IMG/VR virus record: IMGVR_UViG_3300031949_000022
Span: 8,397 to 72,396 of that record
Strand: one strand, 5' to 3'
DNA from: a virus
DNA length: 64,000 nucleotides
Shown: in pieces, positions 7,793 through 37,815 of the stretch
Layout of the letters: every line of letters starts with the position of its first letter
Numbering within the stretch: position 1 is the stretch's first letter
Translations under genes and position numbers: made by a program
The notes under the pieces: generated by a model
Told to the model about the DNA's origin: nothing
The model's database searches: none
The model's input: the letters and a program-made list of their open reading frames with translations, nothing else

Positions 7793-8407
7793 TTACGGGC
7801 AGTAGACCGTCAGGGCCACCAGCGTGGGCGCCGTGAGCGCATCGCTGGTCAACACGCGCGTAAACGCGATCGGCTCGATGTCATCTGAGGCTGCGAACGA
7901 ATCCGTCGGAGATCCAACGGCGTCGCCGTACTGCACGTTGACTTGCCCGGCTGTCCCCCGCAGCTTGATCGCCGTGAACGTGTCGCCGGGCTGAGGTGTG
8001 CAGATGTTTCCGCAGCCGATTTCAAAGGCGCCGGCCGTGCTTACCTGCGCTGGAAACACGATGGTCGGAGGGTAGTCGAACGCCTGTACCCCGCGCAGCT
8101 GGTCATTGCCGTCTGCGGTTGCTGGGGTCAGGGACTCCGTGACGGCTATCCCCCCTCGGGTTCCCGTCAGCACGATCGGGTTGGTCGTGTAGGCACCGGC
8201 CGACGATGACCGCGTGATAGTGATGGTGCGCGGGCACTTGAGCCACTTGCTCGCGGATACGGCCGCGCCGTTGTAGTCAGACGGCACCTTGGTCACGATG
8301 CTGGCTGATGTCGCGAACGACGGTTCAACCCCGTTGTCATCGTCCAGATCGGCAGCCGCGAACGTGATAGTACGCCGGGCGCTGTTGATGGGAACTGCAG
8401 AGCTCAT
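7793..8407 (-). CDS. Hypothetical head-module protein (204 aa)
   Basis: ORF track; lies between MuF-like and scaffold genes. Confidence 0.5.
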   Translation of the reverse strand: MSSAVPINSARRTITFAAADLDDDNGVEPSFATSASIVTKVPSDYNGAAVSASKWLKCPRTITITRSSSAGAYTTNPIVLTGTRGGIAVTESLTPATADGNDQLRGVQAFDYPPTIVFPAQVSTAGAFEIGCGNICTPQPGDTFTAIKLRGTAGQVNVQYGDAVGSPTDSFAASDDIEPIAFTRVLTSDALTAPTLVALTVYCP

Positions 8408-12533: not shown

Positions 12534-13319
12534 TCAGCCCAGTAGCCCATCCCCTATGGGTTTACCCTTCAGGAGATCCATCACCATGTCTCCGCTCTGG
12601 GCGGGGTTGTCGAGGATCTCGTAACCGGTACGCTCGGCGAGCAGGTCCAGAAACTGCATCCGGTGCTCATGGTTTTTGAACACCAAGAACACGAAGAACT
12701 GGTCGTCGTCGCGAGCCTTCAGGGATCCGATGACCTTCGCCATCCTCTCCTTGGACTCCGCGAGTCGCTCGGACAGCTCCTGTAGACCTGCCGCGTTCCC
12801 CTCGGTCGCGGCCTTGTCGCCGAAAAGAGTGTAGATGTCGGCCGGGTCGAACCCTGTTGCGTCTAAGTCCAGACCAGGAGTCTTGTTCAGCAGCTCGTCG
12901 AGTCCATCAACCGTCCAGTCCCCCTGTGCCGTGGGGTTGTTGAGCAGGATGCAAGCCTCCTTCTCCTCAATCTCCGTCAGCGGAGGAACGGCCTTCGCGA
13001 CCGTCAGGCGATAGTCCTTGGTGCCATAGAGTGCATCCAGGATGCCGAGTCGCTGGTTGCCACCGAAGGCATTGCCGGTGGGCTCGTTCCAGTTGCAGGA
13101 GGGCCCCAGCATACCAAGCTTCTTGATGCCCTTCCTGAGCCGCTTCTTGGACTCATCCGAAAGGATGCGCGGGTTGTAGGGCGCGTTGTGGATCTGGCTG
13201 CGATGAATCTCGACAACGACGAAGCGCTCAACAGATTCCGTAGATGTCTCGGCGCCAGACGACCGCTTCGACGAACGGGAAGACCTCACAGACTTTTCGG
13301 TAGTCGCTTGGGTGTTCAT
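12534..13319 (-). CDS. ParB-like nuclease-domain protein (IbrB-like)
   Basis: ORF track; start moved to MNTQATTEK.... Has ...IHNAPYNPR... and ...GGNQRLG... ParB N-terminal-domain motifs. Start overlaps the upstream gene. Confidence 0.7.
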   Translation of the reverse strand: MNTQATTEKSVRSSRSSKRSSGAETSTESVERFVVVEIHRSQIHNAPYNPRILSDESKKRLRKGIKKLGMLGPSCNWNEPTGNAFGGNQRLGILDALYGTKDYRLTVAKAVPPLTEIEEKEACILLNNPTAQGDWTVDGLDELLNKTPGLDLDATGFDPADIYTLFGDKAATEGNAAGLQELSERLAESKERMAKVIGSLKARDDDQFFVFLVFKNHEHRMQFLDLLAERTGYEILDNPAQSGDMVMDLLKGKPIGDGLLG

Positions 13320-13893
13320 CGTGCAACCACAGGACAGTGGGGGGTTCCAGGGAAATTCCCATTGATTCTCCATTGATCGATGGAGGGATCGGAATCGCTC
13401 TGACCGCCATATAGCTCAGAACGTCTAGCCTTCTCCATCCAGCAATGGGGTTGAGCTCGTCTGGCCAGGCTTTGGCCGTGCAAGCCATCGACCTACGGCG
13501 CGCCATCGAGTCCGACTTGCGTTTCCCTGTGATGACGATATCGCACTGGGCATCGTGCTTCGCAGCGTCGTAGACGTCACGAAACGACCAGGACGGGATA
13601 CCATCCATCGACATGTGCGACGGGCGGAAGTAGCCGCTCTTCAGCGCCGCCACCAGCCCTGGATGTGGGTACTGGCGGATCTGGGTGCCCCACCGCTTGG
13701 TGGCTCGTTCCAGTTGGGATTCGATGACGTCGAGCCCCGGGACGAACCACATGTGGAAGGCTTCGACACTCGCAAAGGTTCTGACTGCCATGTCGAGACA
13801 GCAGCAGGAATCCTTGCCCCCGCTGAAGGCCACCAGAGCATGCTGGCTCGCGTGGCCTCTCAGCAGTCCGAGAGCCTCGTCGATGCGTCCCAC
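13228..13893 (-). CDS. PAPS-reductase-family protein (IbrA-like)
   Basis: ORF track (221 aa). P-loop-like ...VAFSGGKDS... motif of the PAPS reductase / ATP-PPase family. Confidence 0.8.
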   Translation of the reverse strand: MGRIDEALGLLRGHASQHALVAFSGGKDSCCCLDMAVRTFASVEAFHMWFVPGLDVIESQLERATKRWGTQIRQYPHPGLVAALKSGYFRPSHMSMDGIPSWSFRDVYDAAKHDAQCDIVITGKRKSDSMARRRSMACTAKAWPDELNPIAGWRRLDVLSYMAVRAIPIPPSINGESMGISLEPPTVLWLHDEHPSDYRKVCEVFPFVEAVVWRRDIYGIC

Positions 13894-16039: not shown

Positions 16040-16288
16040 TCAGGCTATCCGGTTCGTATCAGCCCACCACAGCCCCCGAAGGTTGCCGCCTCCGGGGGCT
16101 TCGTTCGTCATGGTTCTTCCTTGTCTCACCATTTGGGCCAGCGTGTTTCCGCAAGCGCACACCCAAACGATGCACGGGTTCGCCGTGGCCGGCCCAGACA
16201 CTGGACGATCCAAGATGGCCATGAACGCGACGTTGGAATCGGCTACCATCGGGAGCCCACAGTTATTGCACATGATGGGCTTTGTCAC
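16040..16288 (-). CDS. Small Cys-rich (zinc-ribbon-like) protein
   Basis: ORF track. Has CNNCG...CACG pairs; ATGA overlap upstream. Confidence 0.5.
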   Translation of the reverse strand: MTKPIMCNNCGLPMVADSNVAFMAILDRPVSGPATANPCIVWVCACGNTLAQMVRQGRTMTNEAPGGGNLRGLWWADTNRIA

Positions 16289-16647
16289 TTTTCCTCGTCT
16301 CCAAGTGACGCCAACAATGCTGAGTAGTTCACCGTCTCGTGACGGTGCAGTTCAGCGTCAACCATCGCGTCGTGTAGTGCCTGCTCTTCCGGGCCCCGCC
16401 CGATCGTCATCATGTCTTGATAGCCTGGGTCAGCGCGATCGTTGGGGTCCAGTCGCTCGGTGAAGCACACGAGCCGGTACTGATGTCCACATCCACCTTC
16501 GATGCGCTCGCACATCATGATCGCTGCACCGATGGCCGCATCCAGCGTTCTACGTTCGACTGTGCCCCGGAGCCATAGGCCCAAGGACAACGGTCCCTCG
16601 ATTGAGCAGCTGACTCCGTTGTCGGTTAGTTCTGCTTTGAGATTCAC
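16285..16647 (-). CDS. Hypothetical protein (120 aa)
   Basis: GTG at 16647 in GTGA overlap, preceded by GGAGG. Confidence 0.5.
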   Translation of the reverse strand: MNLKAELTDNGVSCSIEGPLSLGLWLRGTVERRTLDAAIGAAIMMCERIEGGCGHQYRLVCFTERLDPNDRADPGYQDMMTIGRGPEEQALHDAMVDAELHRHETVNYSALLASLGDEEK

Positions 16648-18005
16648 GGCACGACCTCCGCGCATGCCGGTTCGACCACGCGCCAATGTGCCTTCTCGGC
16701 GTATTCGAGACGGAACTCGAATGGACGACGCTGGTCCACTGGCCCATCGAAGCGGATGACGCCGTCATGGCACAGGCTGACGCTGGTACCGTGCCAGTGG
16801 TACCAGGCCACGCTCTTGCCTGCGCGCATTGCATCAAGCGCCTGATCCCACGTCATCGCCTTCGGTGGCTCGGGGTCGGGCCATCCGCAGGCGGCTCGCT
16901 GCTCTGGAGTGAGGGCCGAGAGACACCTCCCGATTGGGAGCACACCGATAGGCATTCTGGCTCGATAGAATTCTGCCACCGTCCGCATCGCATCCCGCAG
17001 GACGTCGAGCTCAGCCTTCGCCTTTTTGAACTCCTCCGACATCTTTTTCGCAGCGTCCCTCTCTCCTCTGAGCACGGCTCGCAAGTTCTCCACTTTGCTT
17101 TCGGCCACCCCGACCCGGAGATTGAGCCGGTCGCGCTCTTCTCGCAAGATGTCGCGCTCTACAGCCGCTCGTTGATGCGCGACCCGCTCCCTCCTTAGAT
17201 CATCCGCTGTCCGCTGGTGGTCGTCCCGCTCGAGGTCGTACATCCTGCGGCCAGGATCTTTCTGAAGATCTTTCTGAAGCCGCTCACACTCCGCTATCAG
17301 CTTGTCGCGTTCCGCCCGCAGCGCAACGATCTCGAGATTCTGACCATTCACAAGAACCTTGGTGAAGCCATTCACAGCCTTGGCCTGTGTGAACGATTCC
17401 GACATTCCCACTAGAGCGTCCCGCTCCGCCTGCGCCTCGAGTAGTTGTTTCTCGCCGTCCTTGGCGTAGTCCCTCAACTCCCTGACAGCCCAGTCGTACA
17501 GGATGGGAGGGGACAGATACGGATACAGAACTCGCCACCCGCTGGCAAACAACTCGTCGGCTCGACTCATAGACTTCGCGGTCTGCTTGTCGCTATCCTC
17601 AGGTTCGTCCACTCGACTGAGCGCGCGAGTGAGCCGCTCACAGTCAGCACGCAGGGCGTCCCGCTCGGCCTCTACAGACGCCAGCCTTAGGCCAGCATCG
17701 ACCGCACTGGCGGACCCAGTCTCTAACTTCCATTTTGCCACCTCCGCGAACAAATCCTCGCGCTCGGCGGCTAGAGCTTTGTTCTGTCTGAGCCACCCAG
17801 CCTGCTCTAGTCCTTGATTGTGTGTCTGGTGAGCCAGCTGGTCTTTCAGCTCTTCATGTTCCTTTCGCCAAGCGTGCCGCCGGAGCTCGGCCATTGCATC
17901 CTCCCACTTGACGACGCTCCCGGTCTCGGACTCGCGAAGGCGCACTGTCGCGTGAACAACACCGTGCTGACTCGGCCATTCGATTTCTGGATCGTATCGC
18001 TTCAT
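16644..18005 (-). CDS. Long coiled-coil protein with C-terminal DUF2829-like segment (tentative)
   Basis: ORF track (453 aa). GGAGG before ATG. C-terminus MTWDQALDAMRAGKSVA...HWRVVE resembles DUF2829. Confidence 0.6.
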   Translation of the reverse strand: MKRYDPEIEWPSQHGVVHATVRLRESETGSVVKWEDAMAELRRHAWRKEHEELKDQLAHQTHNQGLEQAGWLRQNKALAAEREDLFAEVAKWKLETGSASAVDAGLRLASVEAERDALRADCERLTRALSRVDEPEDSDKQTAKSMSRADELFASGWRVLYPYLSPPILYDWAVRELRDYAKDGEKQLLEAQAERDALVGMSESFTQAKAVNGFTKVLVNGQNLEIVALRAERDKLIAECERLQKDLQKDPGRRMYDLERDDHQRTADDLRRERVAHQRAAVERDILREERDRLNLRVGVAESKVENLRAVLRGERDAAKKMSEEFKKAKAELDVLRDAMRTVAEFYRARMPIGVLPIGRCLSALTPEQRAACGWPDPEPPKAMTWDQALDAMRAGKSVAWYHWHGTSVSLCHDGVIRFDGPVDQRRPFEFRLEYAEKAHWRVVEPACAEVVP

Positions 18006-18035: not shown

Positions 18036-18215
18036 TCATGGTTCAGGCTGTTTTCTTGTCAGCGTGACGGTGGCCCTAAGCACTTCGGTCATGTCTGGCG
18101 TTCCGGTGAACTCGACTTGCACGTGCCAGAACCCCTTGTTGTTGCGCTTCCTCTTCTGCAGCACGTAGTACGCGAGGGCTTCCTGGATCTGGCTCTTCGT
18201 CAGCTTGACCTTCAT
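18036..18215 (-). CDS. Small hypothetical protein (59 aa, below ORF-track cutoff)
   Basis: Hand translation MKVKLTKSQIQEALAYYVLQKRKRNNKGFWHVQVEF.... GGAGG 5 nt upstream of ATG 18215. Confidence 0.45.
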   Translation of the reverse strand: MKVKLTKSQIQEALAYYVLQKRKRNNKGFWHVQVEFTGTPDMTEVLRATVTLTRKQPEP

Positions 18216-18234
18216 GGATACCTCCGGTCGAAGT

Positions 18235-18501
18235 CTATGCCCTGCGTCTCGAATTCAACCTGACTGTGCCGTAGCCGTAGCCGTCGCCGTCGCCGTAGCC
18301 GTCGCCGCAGCCGTAGCCGTCGCCGCAGCCGGAGCCGTCGCCGCAGCCGGAGCCGTAGCCGCAGCCGGAGCCGTCGCCGCAGCCGTAGCCGTAGCCGTCG
18401 CCGCAGCCGGAGCCGTAGCCGGAGCCGTAGCCGTCGCCGTAGCCGGAGCCGGAGCCGTCGCCGCAGCCGGAGCCGTAGCCGGAGCCTACGGGGAGCATCA
18501 T
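18235..18501 (-). CDS. (Gly-X)36 repeat protein, X = Ser/Tyr/Cys/Asp (88 aa)
   Basis: ATGATG at 18501 in ATGA overlap with the upstream gene. Every repeat codon ends in C (GGC/TCC/TAC/TGC/GAC). The antisense Ala/Val ORF was rejected. Confidence 0.55.
   Translation of the reverse strand: MMLPVGSGYGSGCGDGSGSGYGDGYGSGYGSGCGDGYGYGCGDGSGCGYGSGCGDGSGCGDGYGCGDGYGDGDGYGYGTVRLNSRRRA
18268..18486 (-). repeat. Hexanucleotide-type coding repeat (GGC-NNC)36
   Basis: Read directly; encodes the Gly-X array. Confidence 0.8.
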
Positions 18502-18809
18502 TTCAGCCCCCACTGTTCCGGGACAGGAATCGTGAAGATCTCTGCCCCGTCGGGAATGTCCACGTCTGAGATAGGCCTGATATCCGCTTGCGATGGATCT
18601 TCGATGACCGTCGAAAAACCGACTGACTTCCATCCGAAGATCCACACTGCGCGAGACAGATAGATGCGCCCATCCTTGCGAATGACGTCGCCAGCGAAGA
18701 GCCATCCTCGGTCCACGACCACTACAGCCCTGTTTCCGTTGAGCTTGCTGCGGGTGTACTCAATGCCGTCAACTGTGATGTTTTCTTTCATGGTGTTTTC
18801 TCCTGTCAT
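18498..18809 (-). CDS. Hypothetical protein (103 aa)
   Basis: Internal ATG (MTGENTMKENITVDG...) with GGAGG upstream and ATGA overlap with the upstream ORF. Confidence 0.55.
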   Translation of the reverse strand: MTGENTMKENITVDGIEYTRSKLNGNRAVVVVDRGWLFAGDVIRKDGRIYLSRAVWIFGWKSVGFSTVIEDPSQADIRPISDVDIPDGAEIFTIPVPEQWGLK

Positions 18810-19033
18810 GGATACCTCCCGTCGATCGCATCGTTGTCCACGTCCTGGTAGTTCGGCGGGGCGTCGATGCTTTGGCCAGACTCTCCCATCGGCCTCCGGA
18901 GCCTCTCCCGCTCCCGAACGTTTCGCGTGATCTTCACAGCAGCCGGCCTCAAGATCGGATCGAGCCTCAGGATCGCCAAGCGGTCCGGTCCCTGGATGTC
19001 GTCCGGGATCTCGTAGTCGCTGCCACCAGCCAT
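18806..19033 (-). CDS. Hypothetical protein (75 aa)
   Basis: Internal ATG (MAGGSDYEIPDD...) overlapping the stop of the DnaC-like gene. Confidence 0.5.
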   Translation of the reverse strand: MAGGSDYEIPDDIQGPDRLAILRLDPILRPAAVKITRNVRERERLRRPMGESGQSIDAPPNYQDVDNDAIDGRYP

Positions 19034-20109
19034 CAACGCACCTCCACCACTGGCCCACGCTTCCCTCGGCACTCAACGAACCGGCGCACGGTGGCGTCGC
19101 CGTATTCCGCGTCGATCGCTTCGAGCGTCCACCCCGTCGTGATCATCGTCGGCATTCCGTAGTTGTAGCGGTGACGAATCAGAGCACGCAGTGCGGGTCT
19201 GCCGACGGCTGGTTCCCAGCCCAGGTCATCGAGCGCAACCCAACGTGCGCGCTTCGCGCGGTAGAGTGCGTTGCCGGTCTCGCTTACCCAGTCTCCGTGG
19301 CGTTCCGGTCGCGTCCCCTCGTCGGCCAGGCCATAGGCGATGCAGCCGGCAATGTCCTCCGCTGACACGAAGAGCAACCCCTTGAGCCGCGGGCGCGACA
19401 CACAGTGTTGTGAGCGCGCCTGCTTGTCCGCCTGCTCAAGGGCCTCACGTTGGAACGACTGGTACATGATCTCGACGATCGCAAGCGATTTTCCCGTGCC
19501 GGTATTGCCAGCGAGCACTCCGCCAATCGACACGTCTGCTGACTCGGCCACCGCGCGCAGTCGCGGGTCCATGAGACGCAACCGTTCTTCGCTCGACAGG
19601 TCCGCTGCCGGAGGCAGCGCCTCGCACGCCGAGCGCGTCGCGCGAACGACGGCTTCGTGGAGCTGCACATCCACCAGTGCTCGACGCTCAGCGACCAGTG
19701 CTCGCCAGTTCGTTGAGCGGAGGGCTTCAACCGTCTCACCGCAGAACTGCATATACGACCGCGTGCGATCGGGGCCCCAGTAGACATCGTCACTCGGGCT
19801 ACCCGCGACCCAGTCTCTGACTTTGGCCCAGACATTCGACCGGCCGAGCTCGTAGAGCAGGTCCTGCTCAGGCCAGCCGGAGTCAGCTTGCAGACGCCCG
19901 AGGATCTCCTGGGCCTGCTGGCTTCGATCGGCGGCTTCCATGCGCGCCGCATCCGCTGCGACCGATGCCTCACGCGCTCTCTGCTCGATATCGTCTGCGC
20001 GCTGTGCGCGTTCGCTGGCCACTGTTTCGCGGCGCTCGCGTTGTTCGAGCGTGAGGAGTTTGTCGAGCTCGAGAATTTCTTGTTCCAGGTTGGGCAACTG
20101 GTGACTCAT
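19033..20109 (-). CDS. DnaC/IstB-like AAA+ helicase-loader protein
   Basis: ORF track (358 aa). Walker A GNTGTGKS, Walker B ...WVALDDLGWE, ...PTMITTGW. Directly downstream of the initiator gene. Confidence 0.65.
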   Translation of the reverse strand: MSHQLPNLEQEILELDKLLTLEQRERRETVASERAQRADDIEQRAREASVAADAARMEAADRSQQAQEILGRLQADSGWPEQDLLYELGRSNVWAKVRDWVAGSPSDDVYWGPDRTRSYMQFCGETVEALRSTNWRALVAERRALVDVQLHEAVVRATRSACEALPPAADLSSEERLRLMDPRLRAVAESADVSIGGVLAGNTGTGKSLAIVEIMYQSFQREALEQADKQARSQHCVSRPRLKGLLFVSAEDIAGCIAYGLADEGTRPERHGDWVSETGNALYRAKRARWVALDDLGWEPAVGRPALRALIRHRYNYGMPTMITTGWTLEAIDAEYGDATVRRFVECRGKRGPVVEVR

Positions 20110-21131
20110 TTCGTCTCTGTGCCTGTCGGTGGTGGGGGTTGTTGTTTCTTCATCTCGGCGAGCAGACGGGCGGTGTAGCCGCTGCTAGGCTGGGCCGGAC
20201 CTCGACCGCTGCCAGGGCGGGCGTTCGGGCTCGAAGCCGGCGAGGTACACTTCTGCGGGTCGGTCGCGATGGTGCGTATCGTGGCTTTGTCGCGCCACCA
20301 GCTCCCGGGTGCGTAGACCTTCCGGATGATGCCGACGGCTCGTGTCGCGTCGCCGGCGCACTTGTCGATCAACCGGTGGATCGCTCGCCCGTCGGCGGAG
20401 TCAAACAGGGGCTTCTCGCCACGGGCTGACTCGAACGCTTCGAAGTATGCGTTGCGGACTGCCAAGAACCCGGTCGTCTCCTCGGTTGGCGACTTGGGTG
20501 TCTTCTGGGTCTTCGGCTTCCCACCACTCTTGGGGGTCGGCGTTTTGGTCTTCGGTCCGGTTTTCGACTTCGAAGCTTCTGGTGACTCGAGTCGAAAATC
20601 ATCGCCCCCTGGACTCGCGTCGCTCGTCGACGCGCTAATGCCTACTTCAATGCCTACTTCATGCCTACTTCCGAGCGTTTTTGGCAGCAACTCGGCTGGA
20701 TTTCTGATCGCCGTGTCACCGGTCCCTGTCGTAGATGTCACCGGTCCCTGGACACCATGGCACCGGTCACGTGGTGGAACCGGTGACATGGTGGCACCGG
20801 TCACGTGGTGGAACCGGTGACATGGTGGCACCGGTAACCCGTGACACGATGTCACCAGTGCCGAGACATCGAATTGCCAAGCTAGGCCGTTCTTGGTCGC
20901 CGGGTCGGGGAGAACGCCCGTCTCGACCAACGCCGACACCACGCGTTTCACGGTGCGAGTGCTGAGACCAGTCAACGTCGCCAGTCTCGAGGCCCCGGGC
21001 TTGGGCTTCGGGTAGCGGGTCGACCAGTGGTCGAGAATCGCCAGCAGCACCAGCTTTTCACTGGGCTGAAGAGAGGCCTCAAGTACGGCGCGGCGCGCCG
21101 CTCGTGGAGAGAATTCGGTCACAGACCGCAC
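20106..21131 (-). CDS. Replication initiator / replisome organiser with N-terminal winged-helix
   Basis: ORF track (341 aa). wHTH-like ...LVLLAILDHW...LATLTGLSTRTVKRVVSALVETGVL. Iteron array inside the gene; followed by the loader gene. Confidence 0.55.
   Translation of the reverse strand: MRSVTEFSPRAARRAVLEASLQPSEKLVLLAILDHWSTRYPKPKPGASRLATLTGLSTRTVKRVVSALVETGVLPDPATKNGLAWQFDVSALVTSCHGLPVPPCHRFHHVTGATMSPVPPRDRCHGVQGPVTSTTGTGDTAIRNPAELLPKTLGSRHEVGIEVGISASTSDASPGGDDFRLESPEASKSKTGPKTKTPTPKSGGKPKTQKTPKSPTEETTGFLAVRNAYFEAFESARGEKPLFDSADGRAIHRLIDKCAGDATRAVGIIRKVYAPGSWWRDKATIRTIATDPQKCTSPASSPNARPGSGRGPAQPSSGYTARLLAEMKKQQPPPPTGTETK
20638..20672. repeat. Three tandem 11-12-mers ATGCCTACTTC(A) next to the iterons (possible unwinding element)
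   Basis: Read directly; locally AT-richer than the surroundings. Confidence 0.45.
20714..20862. repeat. Iteron array (about 8 copies of the CACCGGT / ACCGGTG core in both orientations) inside initiator gene; candidate ori
   Basis: TGTCACCGGTCCCTG occurs twice, 22 bp apart. A 34-bp unit CACCGGTCACGTGGTGGAACCGGTGACATGGTGG occurs twice in tandem (20761, 20795), with a degenerate third copy. Confidence 0.6.
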
Positions 21132-22247: not shown

Positions 22248-23726
22248 TCATCCGAACAGGCTCCTCTGCTTGGGCTCGGACTTCTTGTCCGTGGTCTCTG
22301 GTGGCTTCCACGACGCGGCGTGGTGGATGCGGGCTCGTGCGATCGTCACATACGGTGCGTAGTCGTCGGACTCCACGTCCGTCATGTCGTGCATCTCGAT
22401 CCCGATGAAGCGGAAGTTTTCGAGAATACACGCGACACCCGTCGTGCCGCTGCCACAGAAAGGGTCGAGGCAGAGGCCAGACGGTGGGGTAACGAGTCTG
22501 GCAAGCCATCGCATCAACTCGACTGGCTTGACGGTGCTGTGGACATTGCGAGCGCCACCGCTTCGCCCCGCTCCGGAGCGCGGGCAGGCCAGTGCAGCAG
22601 AGCCATCCTTCCGCTTCGTGGCCTTTCCGCGACTCACCTTTGGCAGGTGTGAGCAGCCCAGTTCGCGCTCGCGGCGTGACGGCTTGGCCTGGTACAAGAA
22701 GGGAGGGAAGTCGTCGAGCGGGTGGGGGCGAAACTGGTTGAAGAAGCGGGAAGCAAAACCAGCGTCCGTGTGACCACCACGTGGCCTGTCCGCGTTGGCT
22801 TCGCCCCAGGACATTGGATTCCCATTGCATCCGGAAAAGCCACCAGAACTACTGGACGAGTGCCCACCCTGCCCATCGACCTCCCGGCACGGACACCCAG
22901 CCACGCACCGATCACCGCACTCAGCGTCGTGGCTCAAAACCAGGTTCGCCGGCCACCTCCCAGCAGGGTGGCACTGGATTCCGATTCCCGGCGGCGCCGC
23001 GATCTTGTCGGCCTCTGGCTTGGCGCTGTGCCCGCTTGCATGCCACGACGGTGGACGCTCGGTCCAGTCGGTGGAGACCCGGCAGGAGTCCACATTGAGA
23101 CATCCGCAGCCGTGAGTCAGCACGTTGTCGACCAGAGTACCCTTGAACGGTTTGCGTGCGAGCCACCAGAACTCAGCGCTCGGTTTCAGCCCCGTACCGA
23201 ATCCGTCCCACCGCTTCGCCTCTTCGCATCCACCGGACCCCACCGAGTATGTCCCGCCCTTCTCTGCCGTCGGAGTACCCGCATTGCCGCCGGCCGTGTA
23301 CGTGTGCAGGACTACACGCTGGTCCGTCGTACCGTTCCTCTGGTCAATCCCCTTGGAAACATTGAAACTTTTTGGCATCCCGCTTCCAAAAAGGTGAGCC
23401 ACGACGTCGCGAATATCGAACCCCGCACGCTCGAGTGCTGTTCCTGTCCAATGCGACGTTCTTGGAAGAGACCAGACCAAGGCGTGGCCACCCGGCTTGA
23501 GTACGCGCAGACACTCCGCCATGATCTGTGTCAACCATGTCACCCAATGCGCACGTCCACCCTTGTCCGAATCCCAAGAACTCTGCATGAAGGAAATTCC
23601 CGCAGGTGGATCCGTAACGACCGAGTCCACCGAGCAGTCCGGCATCTCCCGCAGAGCGGCCAGCGCCTCGGAGTGCACCACGCACCACCGCTCCCTGCCC
23701 TCGAGGACGTCGGATAGGTCGGTCAT
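22248..23726 (-). CDS. DNA methyltransferase (N6-A/N4-C type, beta-class motif order)
   Basis: Internal ATG (MTDLSDVLEG...) in ATGA overlap. Has ...VVTDPPAG... early and ...DPFCGSGTTGVA... near the C-terminus. Confidence 0.85.
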   Translation of the reverse strand: MTDLSDVLEGRERWCVVHSEALAALREMPDCSVDSVVTDPPAGISFMQSSWDSDKGGRAHWVTWLTQIMAECLRVLKPGGHALVWSLPRTSHWTGTALERAGFDIRDVVAHLFGSGMPKSFNVSKGIDQRNGTTDQRVVLHTYTAGGNAGTPTAEKGGTYSVGSGGCEEAKRWDGFGTGLKPSAEFWWLARKPFKGTLVDNVLTHGCGCLNVDSCRVSTDWTERPPSWHASGHSAKPEADKIAAPPGIGIQCHPAGRWPANLVLSHDAECGDRCVAGCPCREVDGQGGHSSSSSGGFSGCNGNPMSWGEANADRPRGGHTDAGFASRFFNQFRPHPLDDFPPFLYQAKPSRRERELGCSHLPKVSRGKATKRKDGSAALACPRSGAGRSGGARNVHSTVKPVELMRWLARLVTPPSGLCLDPFCGSGTTGVACILENFRFIGIEMHDMTDVESDDYAPYVTIARARIHHAASWKPPETTDKKSEPKQRSLFG

Positions 23727-24043
23727 TCCGTCCCCGTCAGCGCCCTGATCGCTGCCTCGAGCTGGTCCGCCGTGTAGTTGGCGCCAGGCTGGCAAAGCGA
23801 TCGGAGCTTTCCAAGCGCGAGGTATTGACGCCGCTCTTCCTGAAGCTTCTCGGTATCGTGTTCAAGGAATTGTCTGCTGTACGATTCTCTAGGGTACGTG
23901 TTCCCGGACAGGGTCCACTTGGTTCCGTCGTCGAGCTCGAGCCAGCGTTTCAGGATGCGCTTCACCTTGCGTGGTGCCCCAGGGCTCCACCCTCCGATCA
24001 CGACGACCACGTCACCGACTGCAAACGGTTTGGATTCGATCAT
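23723..24043 (-). CDS. Hypothetical protein (106 aa)
   Basis: Internal ATG (MIESKPFAVGD...) in ATGA overlap with the upstream ORF. Confidence 0.5.
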   Translation of the reverse strand: MIESKPFAVGDVVVVIGGWSPGAPRKVKRILKRWLELDDGTKWTLSGNTYPRESYSRQFLEHDTEKLQEERRQYLALGKLRSLCQPGANYTADQLEAAIRALTGTE

Positions 24044-37207: not shown

Positions 37208-37815
37208 CCGACCCAATCCTAGCCTGGCATTTCCTCCCTGCCGACCGTCGCCTCGCCAACGGCGACGGACGCCTAGTCACACCAGGATCTCGTCTGACTG
37301 TCTACGGGTCCATCGTGCTGTGTGAACACGAACTGCACGCAAGCGTCCGAGCAATCGACGCTCTAAGCGTCCGAGCAATCGACGCTCTCCAGTATGCGTC
37401 TGGACCCATCATCTGCCGGGTCGTCGTCGACGGCGTTGTATCCGGAGACGACCAGATCGCTGGAACGTCACGTCGTTGCCTGTGGCTCGTTGATGGCACT
37501 CGATTGCTGCGCGAGTTTGCGTGCTGCTGTGCACGCCAAGCGTTGGCGCTAAGCGCCTATCCTGACCCGCGTAGCTTTGCAGCAATCGACGTCGCCGAGC
37601 GGTTCGCTCGCGGCGAAGCTACGAGCGAAGAGCTGTTCGCCGCCAGTGCCGTCGCCAGTGTCGTCGCCAGTGCCGCAGCCTGGGCCGCCACCAGGGCCGA
37701 CGCCTGGGCCGCCGCCGGGGCCGCCGCTTGGGACACCGCCGGGGACGCACAGAATACCGAACTCGAGCGTCGGATCAGAGCCGCGCATCGGGCGCAGTGC
37801 GGAGGTGAGCTGTGA
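37204..37815 (+). CDS. Hypothetical protein with in-frame 8-aa tandem duplication and Ala/Trp-rich C-terminal repeats
   Basis: ORF track (203 aa). ...LHASVRAIDALSVRAIDALQYA... and ...AAAWAATRADAWAAAGAAAWDTAGDA.... Confidence 0.6.
   Translation: MTDPILAWHFLPADRRLANGDGRLVTPGSRLTVYGSIVLCEHELHASVRAIDALSVRAIDALQYASGPIICRVVVDGVVSGDDQIAGTSRRCLWLVDGTRLLREFACCCARQALALSAYPDPRSFAAIDVAERFARGEATSEELFAASAVASVVASAAAWAATRADAWAAAGAAAWDTAGDAQNTELERRIRAAHRAQCGGEL
37342..37389 (+). repeat. Tandem duplication of a 24-bp unit (AGCGTCCGAGCAATCGACGCTCT + A/C), identical except the last base
   Basis: Read directly; duplicates SVRAIDAL in frame. Confidence 0.85.

Follow-up and report, generated by a model that had tools for sequence, protein, structure and literature searches.

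Does an open reading frame in which glycine occupies every second position encode a real protein, and if so, what might that protein do for the virus that carries it? This question is raised by a locus in the 64,000-nucleotide stretch of viral DNA analyzed here (positions 8,397 to 72,396 of IMG/VR record IMGVR_UViG_3300031949_000022; hereafter, the window), wherein the minus strand of positions 18235-18501 translates to MMLPVGSGYGSGCGDGSGSGYGDGYGSGYGSGCGDGYGYGCGDGSGCGYGSGCGDGSGCGDGYGCGDGYGDGDGYGYGTVRLNSRRRA*, that is, MMLPV-(Gly-X)36-G-TVRLNSRRRA, a product of 88 amino acids. The original prediction, made from the letters of the window alone, regarded this frame as a true protein gene that is coupled to the gene upstream within an early or replication operon. 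That view is upheld by synteny, by ends that are conserved in frame, by insertions and deletions of whole repeat units, and by the retention of Gly and Ser through different codons. On this comparative sequence evidence, we conclude that 18235-18501 on the minus strand is translated and that the gene belongs to a phage family of wide distribution. The positions originally given for it were right, and its placement on the minus strand is a correction.

A strict Gly-X repeat gene coupled to an upstream partner gene

A recount reproduces exactly the (Gly-X)36 design and the residue counts reported earlier: Gly occupies 37 of the 37 alternate positions of residues 6-78, and X comprises 11 Tyr, 9 Ser, 9 Asp, and 7 Cys. 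Every one of the 73 core codons has C at its third position (37 GGC, 11 TAC, 9 TCC, 9 GAC, and 7 TGC), and Tandem Repeats Finder reports a single array at 18268-18486 with a period of 6, 36.5 copies, and a score of 263. The protein has an isoelectric point (pI) of 4.05 and a net charge of -5.6. An identical 88-amino-acid open reading frame is present in the public gene call for the 72-kb metagenome contig (ENA ERZ27256953 k141_5950653). Note that the repeat region is also open in four of the five remaining reading frames. Therefore, an open frame by itself is no proof of coding, and it is the comparative data that decide the frame. The features of the gene and its partner are as follows.

18235..18501, minus strand: Gly-X repeat protein gene, 88 amino acids, or 87 from the second ATG (translation, public gene call, synteny)
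18487..18501, minus strand: leader MMLPV, which with the first Gly corresponds to the family motif [FM]-R-P-[VI]-G (counts over 72 relatives)
18268..18486, minus strand: (Gly-X)36-Gly core, a hexanucleotide array GGC-NNC (Tandem Repeats Finder, codon and residue counts)
18238..18267, minus strand: basic C-terminal tail TVRLNSRRRA; family consensus T-[VCIP]-S-[PN]-x-R-x-R-R (per-position tail counts)
18498..18501, minus strand: stop of the upstream gene and start of the Gly-X gene, overlapping as ATGA; the second ATG of the ATGATG start gives TGATG (sequence)
18498..18791, minus strand: partner gene for a 97-amino-acid, all-beta protein of predicted Sm/LSm-like fold, family "A1" (homologues, AlphaFold2 (AF2) model; no Pfam model)

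Two features described previously are present in the sequence: the ATGA shared with the upstream gene, and the GGAGG motif ahead of the 59-amino-acid gene that follows. The upstream gene had been assigned 103 amino acids; judging from the starts of its homologues and from the public call, a length of 97 amino acids is more likely. A six-frame scan revealed no second copy of the repeat array in the window. A short Gly-alternating run (GPGGGPGVGPGGGPGCGTGD) is open in one frame at window 37663-37722 (minus strand) and probably is an incidental GC-rich frame.

The repeat gene belongs to a mobile two-gene cassette

The original prediction had proposed a search for homologues of the repeat protein. 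A direct protein search returned only 35 weak matches (E >= 3.5e-8), all of which bear (Gly-[Tyr/Ser/Asp...])n tracts joined to differing flanking domains, and it missed the family described below because of compositional bias. A gene for a Pfam DUF6948 protein is situated immediately upstream in the loci of these matches. The family was reached instead through synteny, beginning with the partner gene. A single-protein scan of IMG/VR with the window partner found nothing, whereas an alignment-based scan succeeded. The resulting set comprises 96 loci that encode the partner family, of which 80 are from IMG/VR (out of 341 relatives), 15 are from metagenome-assembled genomes (MAGs) or other genomes, and one is the window itself. 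These loci were scanned in six frames for (Gly-X)n runs, and the counts use the 92 whose downstream sequence is long enough.

A (Gly-X)n open reading frame follows the partner gene on the same strand in 91 of these 92 loci, and the sole exception is a weak partial match. It begins 6-138 nucleotides past the partner stop (66 nucleotides or fewer except in loci L045 and L048), and in 62 of the 91 loci the start overlaps the partner stop by 1 or 4 nucleotides, as TGATG or TAATG in 46 cases and as ATGA or GTGA in 16. The rest of the approximately 1 Mb of scanned loci is almost devoid of Gly-X runs. The genes that flank the pair are not conserved: the largest cluster of neighboring genes is represented in 12 of 91 loci, and the neighbors encode ThyX, ribonucleotide reductase, MazG, DNA polymerase, and similar proteins. 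Therefore, the two genes constitute a self-contained cassette that resides in early or DNA-metabolism regions. Hosts of the MAG loci include Proteobacteria, Chloroflexota, Planctomycetota, Verrucomicrobiota, Actinomycetota, and others. We conclude that the two genes of the cassette are translationally coupled through a stop codon and a start codon that overlap, and that they travel together between regions devoted to early functions, replication, and nucleotide metabolism in phages from many bacterial phyla.

A comparable arrangement was observed for a second partner family, Pfam DUF6948. From 272 IMG/VR relatives, 80 loci were kept, and 61 of these have at least 600 nucleotides of downstream sequence; a Gly-X run is located just downstream on the same strand in 58 of the 61. 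When the route was reversed to begin with Gly-X proteins, a same-strand gene for a Sm-like protein was present upstream in seven of seven contexts. It is the immediate neighbor in five of these; for P0013 it lies two genes upstream, and for P0031 it precedes a tandem set of four Gly-X genes. Among the DUF6948-linked relatives (L104-L183), the tract can be fused in frame to several unrelated folded domains. Those that recur include an N-terminal domain ('...GAC...LxWAE...') and a C-terminal domain of about 110 amino acids ('AFWRS..NGG..LHAT..KWKGERxWxVAL..LKREIL'), neither of which has a Pfam or PHROG model.

Cultured phages also carry the pair. It is represented by RcapNL_00047 and RcapNL_00046 in Rhodobacter phage RcapNL (L187), by gp018 and gp017 in all 115 isolates of Rheinheimera phage Barba, and by gp37 and gp38 in Eggerthella phage PMBT5, where the two genes lie between those for the single-stranded DNA-binding protein (SSB) and DnaD/DnaI. 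The pair is likewise present in Caudoviricetes ctOK67, wherein the repeat protein (L186:2746-3060, GenBank MW202613, UOF79295.1) is annotated as 'lamprin', a label that is an artifact of low-complexity similarity. These examples surfaced only from divergent family queries; tblastn searches with the window partner and with one DUF6948 protein found nothing, nor did a megablast search of 8 kb around the Gly-X gene against GenBank phages. RcapNL also encodes the validated anti-CRISPR protein AcrIC9, which is part of a separate three-gene directon (PMC7391736).

The earlier statement that no phage protein of this design has been described stands, in that none was found in the searchable literature, Pfam, PHROGs, NCBIfam, or PADLOC. 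Searches of Pfam, PHROGs, NCBIfam, and PADLOC with the repeat protein, its partner, and the fused domains yielded only low-complexity noise (TrAA12, keratin head, KRTAP, and the unknown-function PHROGs 18306 and 10432). We likewise found no publication on DUF6948, and the paper on PMBT5 does not mention gp37 or gp38. Thus, the cassette is widespread and lacks a published description, and its proteins are deposited as 'hypothetical protein'.

Conserved ends and periodicity surround a freely varying core

Among 72 distinct, complete Gly-X proteins, on which all architecture statistics are based, a common plan is evident. A leader ending in [FM]-R-P-[VI]-G is followed by a core of 13-143 residues (median 71) and then by a tail with the consensus T-[VCIP]-S-[PN]-x-R-x-R-R. 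Val or Ile immediately precedes the first Gly in 61 of the proteins, and Pro is located one position earlier in 55. Adjacent basic residues are present in the tails of 56, and at least three Arg or Lys residues in those of 58. The P0002 and P0011 proteins have the same kind of tail. The window protein conforms to this plan: the P-V-G portion of its leader (M-L-P-V-G) agrees with the motif, with Leu in place of Arg, and its tail GTVRLNSRRRA fits the consensus, the nearest examples being GTVRSSKRRRS (L078) and GTVRRSIRRRRS (L097).

The X positions are more variable. Family-wide, X is Tyr in 47% of cases, Asp in 21%, Asn in 15%, Ser in 7%, and Cys in about 1%. Tyr constitutes 0.23-0.74 of X in every member, including the window protein (11/36 = 0.31), whereas Asp ranges from 0 to 0.49, and some members have none. 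Net charge spans -16 to +5 with a median of -4, and acidity is therefore not a conserved property. In sum, the features that are kept are the Gly periodicity, abundant and evenly spaced Tyr residues, both terminal motifs, and cotranslation with the partner, whereas length, the order of X residues, and net charge are free to vary.

The Cys and Ser richness noted in the original prediction is peculiar to the window copy; the order of abundance for the family is Tyr > Asp > Asn or Ser. The Cys fraction of the window protein (0.19) is the highest of all members, and six of its seven Cys residues are found in the context G-C-G-D. A similarly Cys-rich protein is gp38 of PMBT5 (L193:1716-2042), which also has seven Cys residues, and in both proteins these are mostly in G-C-G-D or G-C-G-Y. 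Both Cys-rich copies adjoin genes for a helicase loader and a replication initiator.

Some loci carry more than one repeat gene. At L192:1616-3372, four Gly-X paralogues that are identical at their ends (MIIINIHG...GDPLLTAIALAHHHDCMN) lie in tandem behind a single gene for a Sm-like protein, and tandem Gly-X genes are also present at L166 (four) and L006 (two).

The core changes rapidly by gain and loss of six-nucleotide units

The partner proteins of some loci are 97-100% identical, yet differences of 2-70 residues are seen among the accompanying Gly-X proteins (as at L065, L072, and L066, where they have 88, 110, and 158 amino acids, respectively). The individually sequenced Barba isolates of Rheinheimera have Gly-X genes of 210, 216, or 252 nucleotides. 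The changes in length correspond to whole Gly-X units, in the isolates as well. We conclude that the length and X sequence of the core change fast by gain and loss of six-nucleotide units.

Each array relies on essentially one Gly codon. For the window's family, GGC accounts for about 95% of Gly codons, at loci with GC contents of 43-70%, and GGG or GGT takes its place in about one-third of the DUF6948-linked arrays. Both TCC and AGC serve for Ser, and the codons for Tyr, Asp, and Asn end in C or T, with T at every X third position in L064, L085, and L051. The homogeneity of synonymous sites within arrays points to concerted evolution by slippage. The earlier observation that every core codon of the window gene ends in C was accurate, but the accompanying suggestion that this matches the GC bias of the genome at third codon positions (GC3) was not, since the GC3 of the gene is 0.94 as opposed to 0.65-0.78 for neighboring genes, and since GGC is used across the full range of GC contents noted above.

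The X codons of loci L009-L183 are nearly all of the form NAY (Tyr TAC, Asp GAC, Asn AAC, and His CAC), and the other X residues, Ser, Cys, and Phe, are each one mutational step from TAC. Tyr, Asp, Asn, and His are the set of amino acids whose codons are read by queuosine-modified tRNAs, which are also the targets of colicin E5.

The NNC pattern of the X codons resembles the outcome of adenine mutagenesis by a diversity-generating retroelement. We rejected this candidate because no reverse transcriptase domain is listed in the Pfam tables for the contig, no template repeat is present, and codon position 2 is A in about 85% of cases. The organization as a two-gene cassette with variable neighbors and the lack of a second array copy in the window also argue against it.

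The partner protein is predicted to adopt a Sm-like fold

The partner family is represented by more than 1090 homologue clusters at 55-82% identity and by 258 representative clusters at 50% identity among 1.84 billion proteins. Such conservation is unusual for a phage protein and points to a universal target. Matches to Pfam for the window partner did not include DUF6948 (PF22253), even at E <= 10, or the LSM or Hfq models, and searches of PDB sequences with the profiles of both partner families found no relative. The AF2 model for the window partner family is all-beta with a predicted local distance difference test (pLDDT) score of 80. Of the 50 PDB matches listed for it, all but two are Sm/LSm-fold chains (E 0.008-0.09, template-modeling (TM) score of about 0.5), and the other two come from the engineered LSm-fusion cage TIP60. 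For DUF6948, the model reaches a pLDDT score of 91, and its top PDB matches are all Sm/LSm proteins, with TM scores up to 0.75 and a root mean square deviation (rmsd) of 1.8 A to an archaeal SmAP. For the two models together, the top PDB matches have E values of about 0.01 and rmsd values of 1.8-2.8 A.

Direct comparisons of the partner family with DUF6948 by BLASTP and hhalign were not significant (hhalign P = 0.09). A search of BFVD, which holds predicted structures of viral proteins, with the window partner model recovered a family member first, then the Barba and PMBT5 proteins (E 3e-5), and then four DUF6948 proteins (E 0.003-0.009). The proteins from cultured phages are matched by the hidden Markov models of both families: RcapNL_00047 matches DUF6948 with an E value of 1.3e-4, which is below the cut-off, and is also matched by the model of the window family. 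Moreover, hhalign connected a bridge alignment to the window family with a probability of 99.7% and to DUF6948 with one of 72.8%. These predicted structures and sub-threshold sequence links suggest that the window partner family and DUF6948 are probably one superfamily of small Sm-like barrels. In some members of the partner family (P0276, P0277, and P0399), the barrel is tandemly duplicated within one polypeptide.

A possible role in higher-order assembly

What might the two proteins do together? We propose that the Gly-X product is a self-associating repeat protein whose ends are tethered to a LSm-like ring, to nucleic acid, or to both, thereby creating a higher-order assembly early in infection. 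We infer this function from the combined evidence and assign it a probability of roughly 40%. By this proposal, the core would be a flexible, multivalent 'sticker and spacer' polymer in which Tyr residues serve as stickers, Gly residues serve as spacers, and Asp, Asn, and Ser tune solubility. The core would self-associate in a cross-beta or condensate-like manner, and the conserved ends would dock the repeat protein to its LSm-like partner and/or to nucleic acid. The partner probably forms a ring and would be made in matching amounts. The pair could then gather RNA or single-stranded DNA into the assembly, by analogy with the use of low-complexity tails by eukaryotic Sm/LSm proteins. The seven Cys residues of the window copy perhaps permit metal binding or disulfide cross-links, which would be a local peculiarity.

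Several observations are consistent with this proposal. A conserved Tyr/Gly pattern combined with free length, order, and charge fits a polymer whose function depends on bulk properties. With a strict two-residue period, the X side chains of an extended strand all project from the same face, and the presence of the same tract on several unrelated domains is as expected of a generic physical module. Synthetic GYGYGYG heptapeptides are known to self-assemble into amyloid-type fibrils (PMC8163036, PMC10510724). Among the physical ideas offered in the original prediction, silk-like beta stacking and phase-separating low-complexity behavior would provide the best physical reading. A polyglycine-II bundle was considered and rejected, given that a two-residue period should not be able to hold Gly on one face of a three-fold helix, as judged from geometry.

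A more specific version of the proposal, which we consider possible but on balance doubtful, is that the cassette is a 'granule kit'. In such a kit, a LSm-like ring and a separate, length-tunable (Gly-Tyr/Asp/Asn/Ser)n polymer would build a condensate or fibrillar compartment of RNA and protein, or of single-stranded DNA and protein, during early infection. If true, the cassette would be a counterpart in bacterial viruses of eukaryotic Sm/LSm granule assembly, and repeat slippage would act as an evolutionary dial for material properties.

Some findings weigh against the assembly proposal. The dominance of GGC at any GC content and the restriction of X to NAY-type codons hint at a constraint at the nucleotide or translational level that the model does not explain. 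Most repeat lengths were taken from metagenomes assembled from short reads and could be in error, although comparable variation is seen among the genomes of isolates. The Sm-like assignment derives from predicted structures with modest Foldseek E values, none of which is 0.001 or lower against the PDB. Finally, the link between the partner family and DUF6948 needs intermediate sequences, given the P value of 0.09 for the direct profile comparison.

Alternative explanations

The alternative that fares best, which we nevertheless judge to be unlikely, is that the Gly-X protein is the sole effector and that the partner is merely its escort. The repeat protein, being sticky, amyloid-prone, or metal-binding, would sequester or coat a host component, and the partner would be a chaperone, produced in equal measure, that keeps it soluble until the time of need, as curli CsgC and CsgE do for CsgA. 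Translational coupling and strict co-occurrence are readily accommodated by this explanation, as are the amyloid propensity of GY repeats (PMC8163036), the presence of several tandem Gly-X paralogues after one partner gene (four in L192, for example), and the Cys-rich variants in the window and PMBT5. However, the partner (55-82% identity at loci of 43-70% GC) is more conserved than the escort of a hypervariable client would need to be, and the best structural matches to its predicted model are Sm rings that bind nucleic acid.

Alternatively, the Gly-X product might be an anti-defense decoy, namely an acidic, Tyr-rich early protein that mimics nucleic acid or a defense trigger and thereby blocks restriction or another form of immunity, with repeat turnover reflecting an arms race. 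The location in an early region beside replication genes, the low pI and negative charge of the window copy, and the hypervariable cores of near-identical phages would suit such a role, and there is precedent for nucleic-acid mimicry on a Sm ring by the acidic tails of Hfq (PMC5606850). The acidity of the window copy had likewise led to the earlier suggestion of a DNA mimic. At the level of the family, this suggestion is not supported, because net charge ranges from -16 to +5 over the 72 relatives and Asp may be wholly absent from X, in contrast to the strongly negative surface expected throughout a family of DNA mimics of the Ocr/ArdA type. Furthermore, the cassette is maintained across many phyla, including Gram-positive bacteria, unlike typical anti-defense genes, which have a narrow distribution. 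No match was obtained with PADLOC, though PADLOC covers defense rather than anti-defense proteins. We therefore consider a decoy function to be improbable.

Less credible still is that the gene encodes the precursor of a ribosomally synthesized and post-translationally modified peptide (RiPP), whether similar to microcin B17, as had been raised previously, or of another kind. RiPP families typically combine a hypervariable core with conserved ends, which here would be recognition sequences for modification of the Gly/Ser/Cys/Tyr core, and the window copy does carry Gly, Ser, and Cys, with most of its Cys residues in G-C-G-D. However, the leader is only about 5 amino acids long rather than the expected 20-30 or so, and no YcaO/cyclodehydratase, radical SAM, dehydrogenase, protease, or exporter domain is listed in Pfam tables that cover most of the contig. 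In addition, no enzyme gene is a conserved neighbor, Cys accounts for about 1% of X family-wide, and relatives have the tract fused to folded domains.

That the array is a nucleic-acid element (such as a cluster of binding sites, part of an origin, or an RNA rich in G) whose frame is incidental or a by-product of neutral slippage is the least tenable of these explanations: it draws on the prevalence of GGC in the window's family at any GC content, the homogeneity of synonymous sites, the location in a replication module, and the four other open frames, but it is contradicted by the in-frame, amino acid-level conservation of leader and tail over 72 distinct genes, the maintained stop/start overlap, length changes that are all whole codon pairs, the encoding of Gly by GGG or GGT and of Ser by TCC and AGC, the in-frame fusions to folded domains, and an RNA that is less structured than shuffled controls (z = +3.1 for the Gly-X mRNA) and whose region matches no Rfam family.

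Genomic context of the window gene

The contig from which the window derives is that of a temperate phage, with genes for an integrase, a PD-(D/E)XK recombinase, a terminase, a GH25 lysin, a N6/N4 methylase, a helix-turn-helix (HTH) replication initiator, and a DnaC-like loader. Additional features near the cassette are as follows.

18036..18215, minus strand: downstream gene of 59 amino acids (open reading frame and public call; not a conserved neighbor)
18221..18225, minus strand: GGAGG ribosome-binding site of the 59-amino-acid gene (sequence)
16644-18005, minus strand: 453-amino-acid open reading frame two genes downstream, coiled-coil-rich by eye (no match in Pfam, PHROGs, PADLOC, or NCBIfam)
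19033..20109, minus strand: DnaC-like helicase loader (PHROG phrog_50, E 1.4e-7)
20106..21131, minus strand: HTH_36/replication initiator open reading frame (Pfam HTH_36 E 6e-7, PHROG replication initiation families; the public call has two genes)
22248-23795, minus strand: N6/N4 DNA methyltransferase (Pfam E 6e-25)
~13228-13893: gene resembling that for 3'-phosphoadenosine-5'-phosphosulfate (PAPS) reductase, near the terminase gene

A scan for promoters and terminators identified no promoter-like or minus-strand terminator-like sites that break this run of genes, and thus no hint that the repeat gene is transcribed separately. A sub-threshold Rfam match to the Streptococcus small RNA SpF66 at window 16058-16187 (minus strand; 23 bits versus a gathering threshold of 42, E 0.024) is probably due to chance.

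Significance of the cassette

The cassette is found in hundreds of viral contigs (341 and 272 IMG/VR relatives for the two partner families) and in at least four cultured lineages, with hosts ranging from Proteobacteria to Actinobacteria. Whatever the mechanism, Pfam DUF6948 gains a context, and a new family of repeat proteins with slippage-driven length is defined. If the pair does assemble with nucleic acid, it would represent a new principle in early phage infection and a very small natural sticker-and-spacer system for the study of bacterial condensates or functional amyloids. Tractable models are available in RcapNL with Rhodobacter capsulatus, Barba with Rheinheimera, and PMBT5 with Eggerthella lenta.

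Comparison with known systems

Some resemblances are restricted to composition. High glycine-tyrosine keratin-associated proteins and lamprin share with the Gly-X family only an abundance of Gly, Tyr, Cys, and Ser. Membership in the keratin-associated group (Pfam KRTAP PF11759) was rejected, as the window protein has no match and its relatives score 13.8 bits versus a cut-off of 21.1. The microcin B17 precursor McbA is likewise encoded by a small open reading frame rich in Gly, Ser, and Cys codons, but the Gly-X family lacks both a long leader and genes of the McbBCD type, and Cys is not characteristic of its members.

Other resemblances concern periodicity. As in the (GAGAGS)n repeats of silk fibroin, Gly alternates with X, so that all X side chains of a beta-strand point to the same side. 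In contrast to silk, the X residues of the Gly-X family are large and polar (Tyr, Asp, and Asn) rather than Ala or Ser, and the proteins are viral, intracellular, and about 90 amino acids in length. Prion-like domains of the FUS type and GYGYGYG peptides also have dense, evenly spaced [G/S]-Y-[G/S] motifs (PMC8163036, PMC10510724). The Gly-X proteins differ from FUS-type domains in that their period is strictly two residues, Asp is plentiful, Gln is absent, both ends carry conserved motifs, and a partner gene is dedicated to them, and in that they belong to bacterial viruses.

With regard to the partner, the proteins GoF, MotB.1, and Frd.2 of T4 are small early phage proteins that also have a predicted LSm-like fold, and the GoF(D25Y) variant affects mRNA stability (PMC12152347). 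No sequence relation to these proteins was found, and no pairing of them with a Gly-X gene has been reported.

The cassette as a whole can be compared with Sm/LSm proteins that carry low-complexity tails, in which a small Sm-fold barrel is joined with a repetitive, Gly-rich or otherwise low-complexity segment that makes multivalent contacts. Examples include the (Gly-Arg)9 tail of SmD1, the Q/N tail of yeast Lsm4 that functions in processing body (P-body) assembly, the RG tails of SmD3 and SmB, and the RGG segments of LSm14. In the phage cassette, by contrast, the repeat is a separate, coupled polypeptide built of Gly-Tyr/Asp/Asn/Ser rather than Gly-Arg or Q/N, and the Sm fold is predicted. 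The C-terminal domains of bacterial Hfq regulate its Sm ring (PMC5606850). Borg Sm proteins have disordered tails composed of tandem repeats, and these tails resemble the Gly-X core in being derived from fast-evolving, in-frame tandem repeats on a mobile element (PMC9879509).

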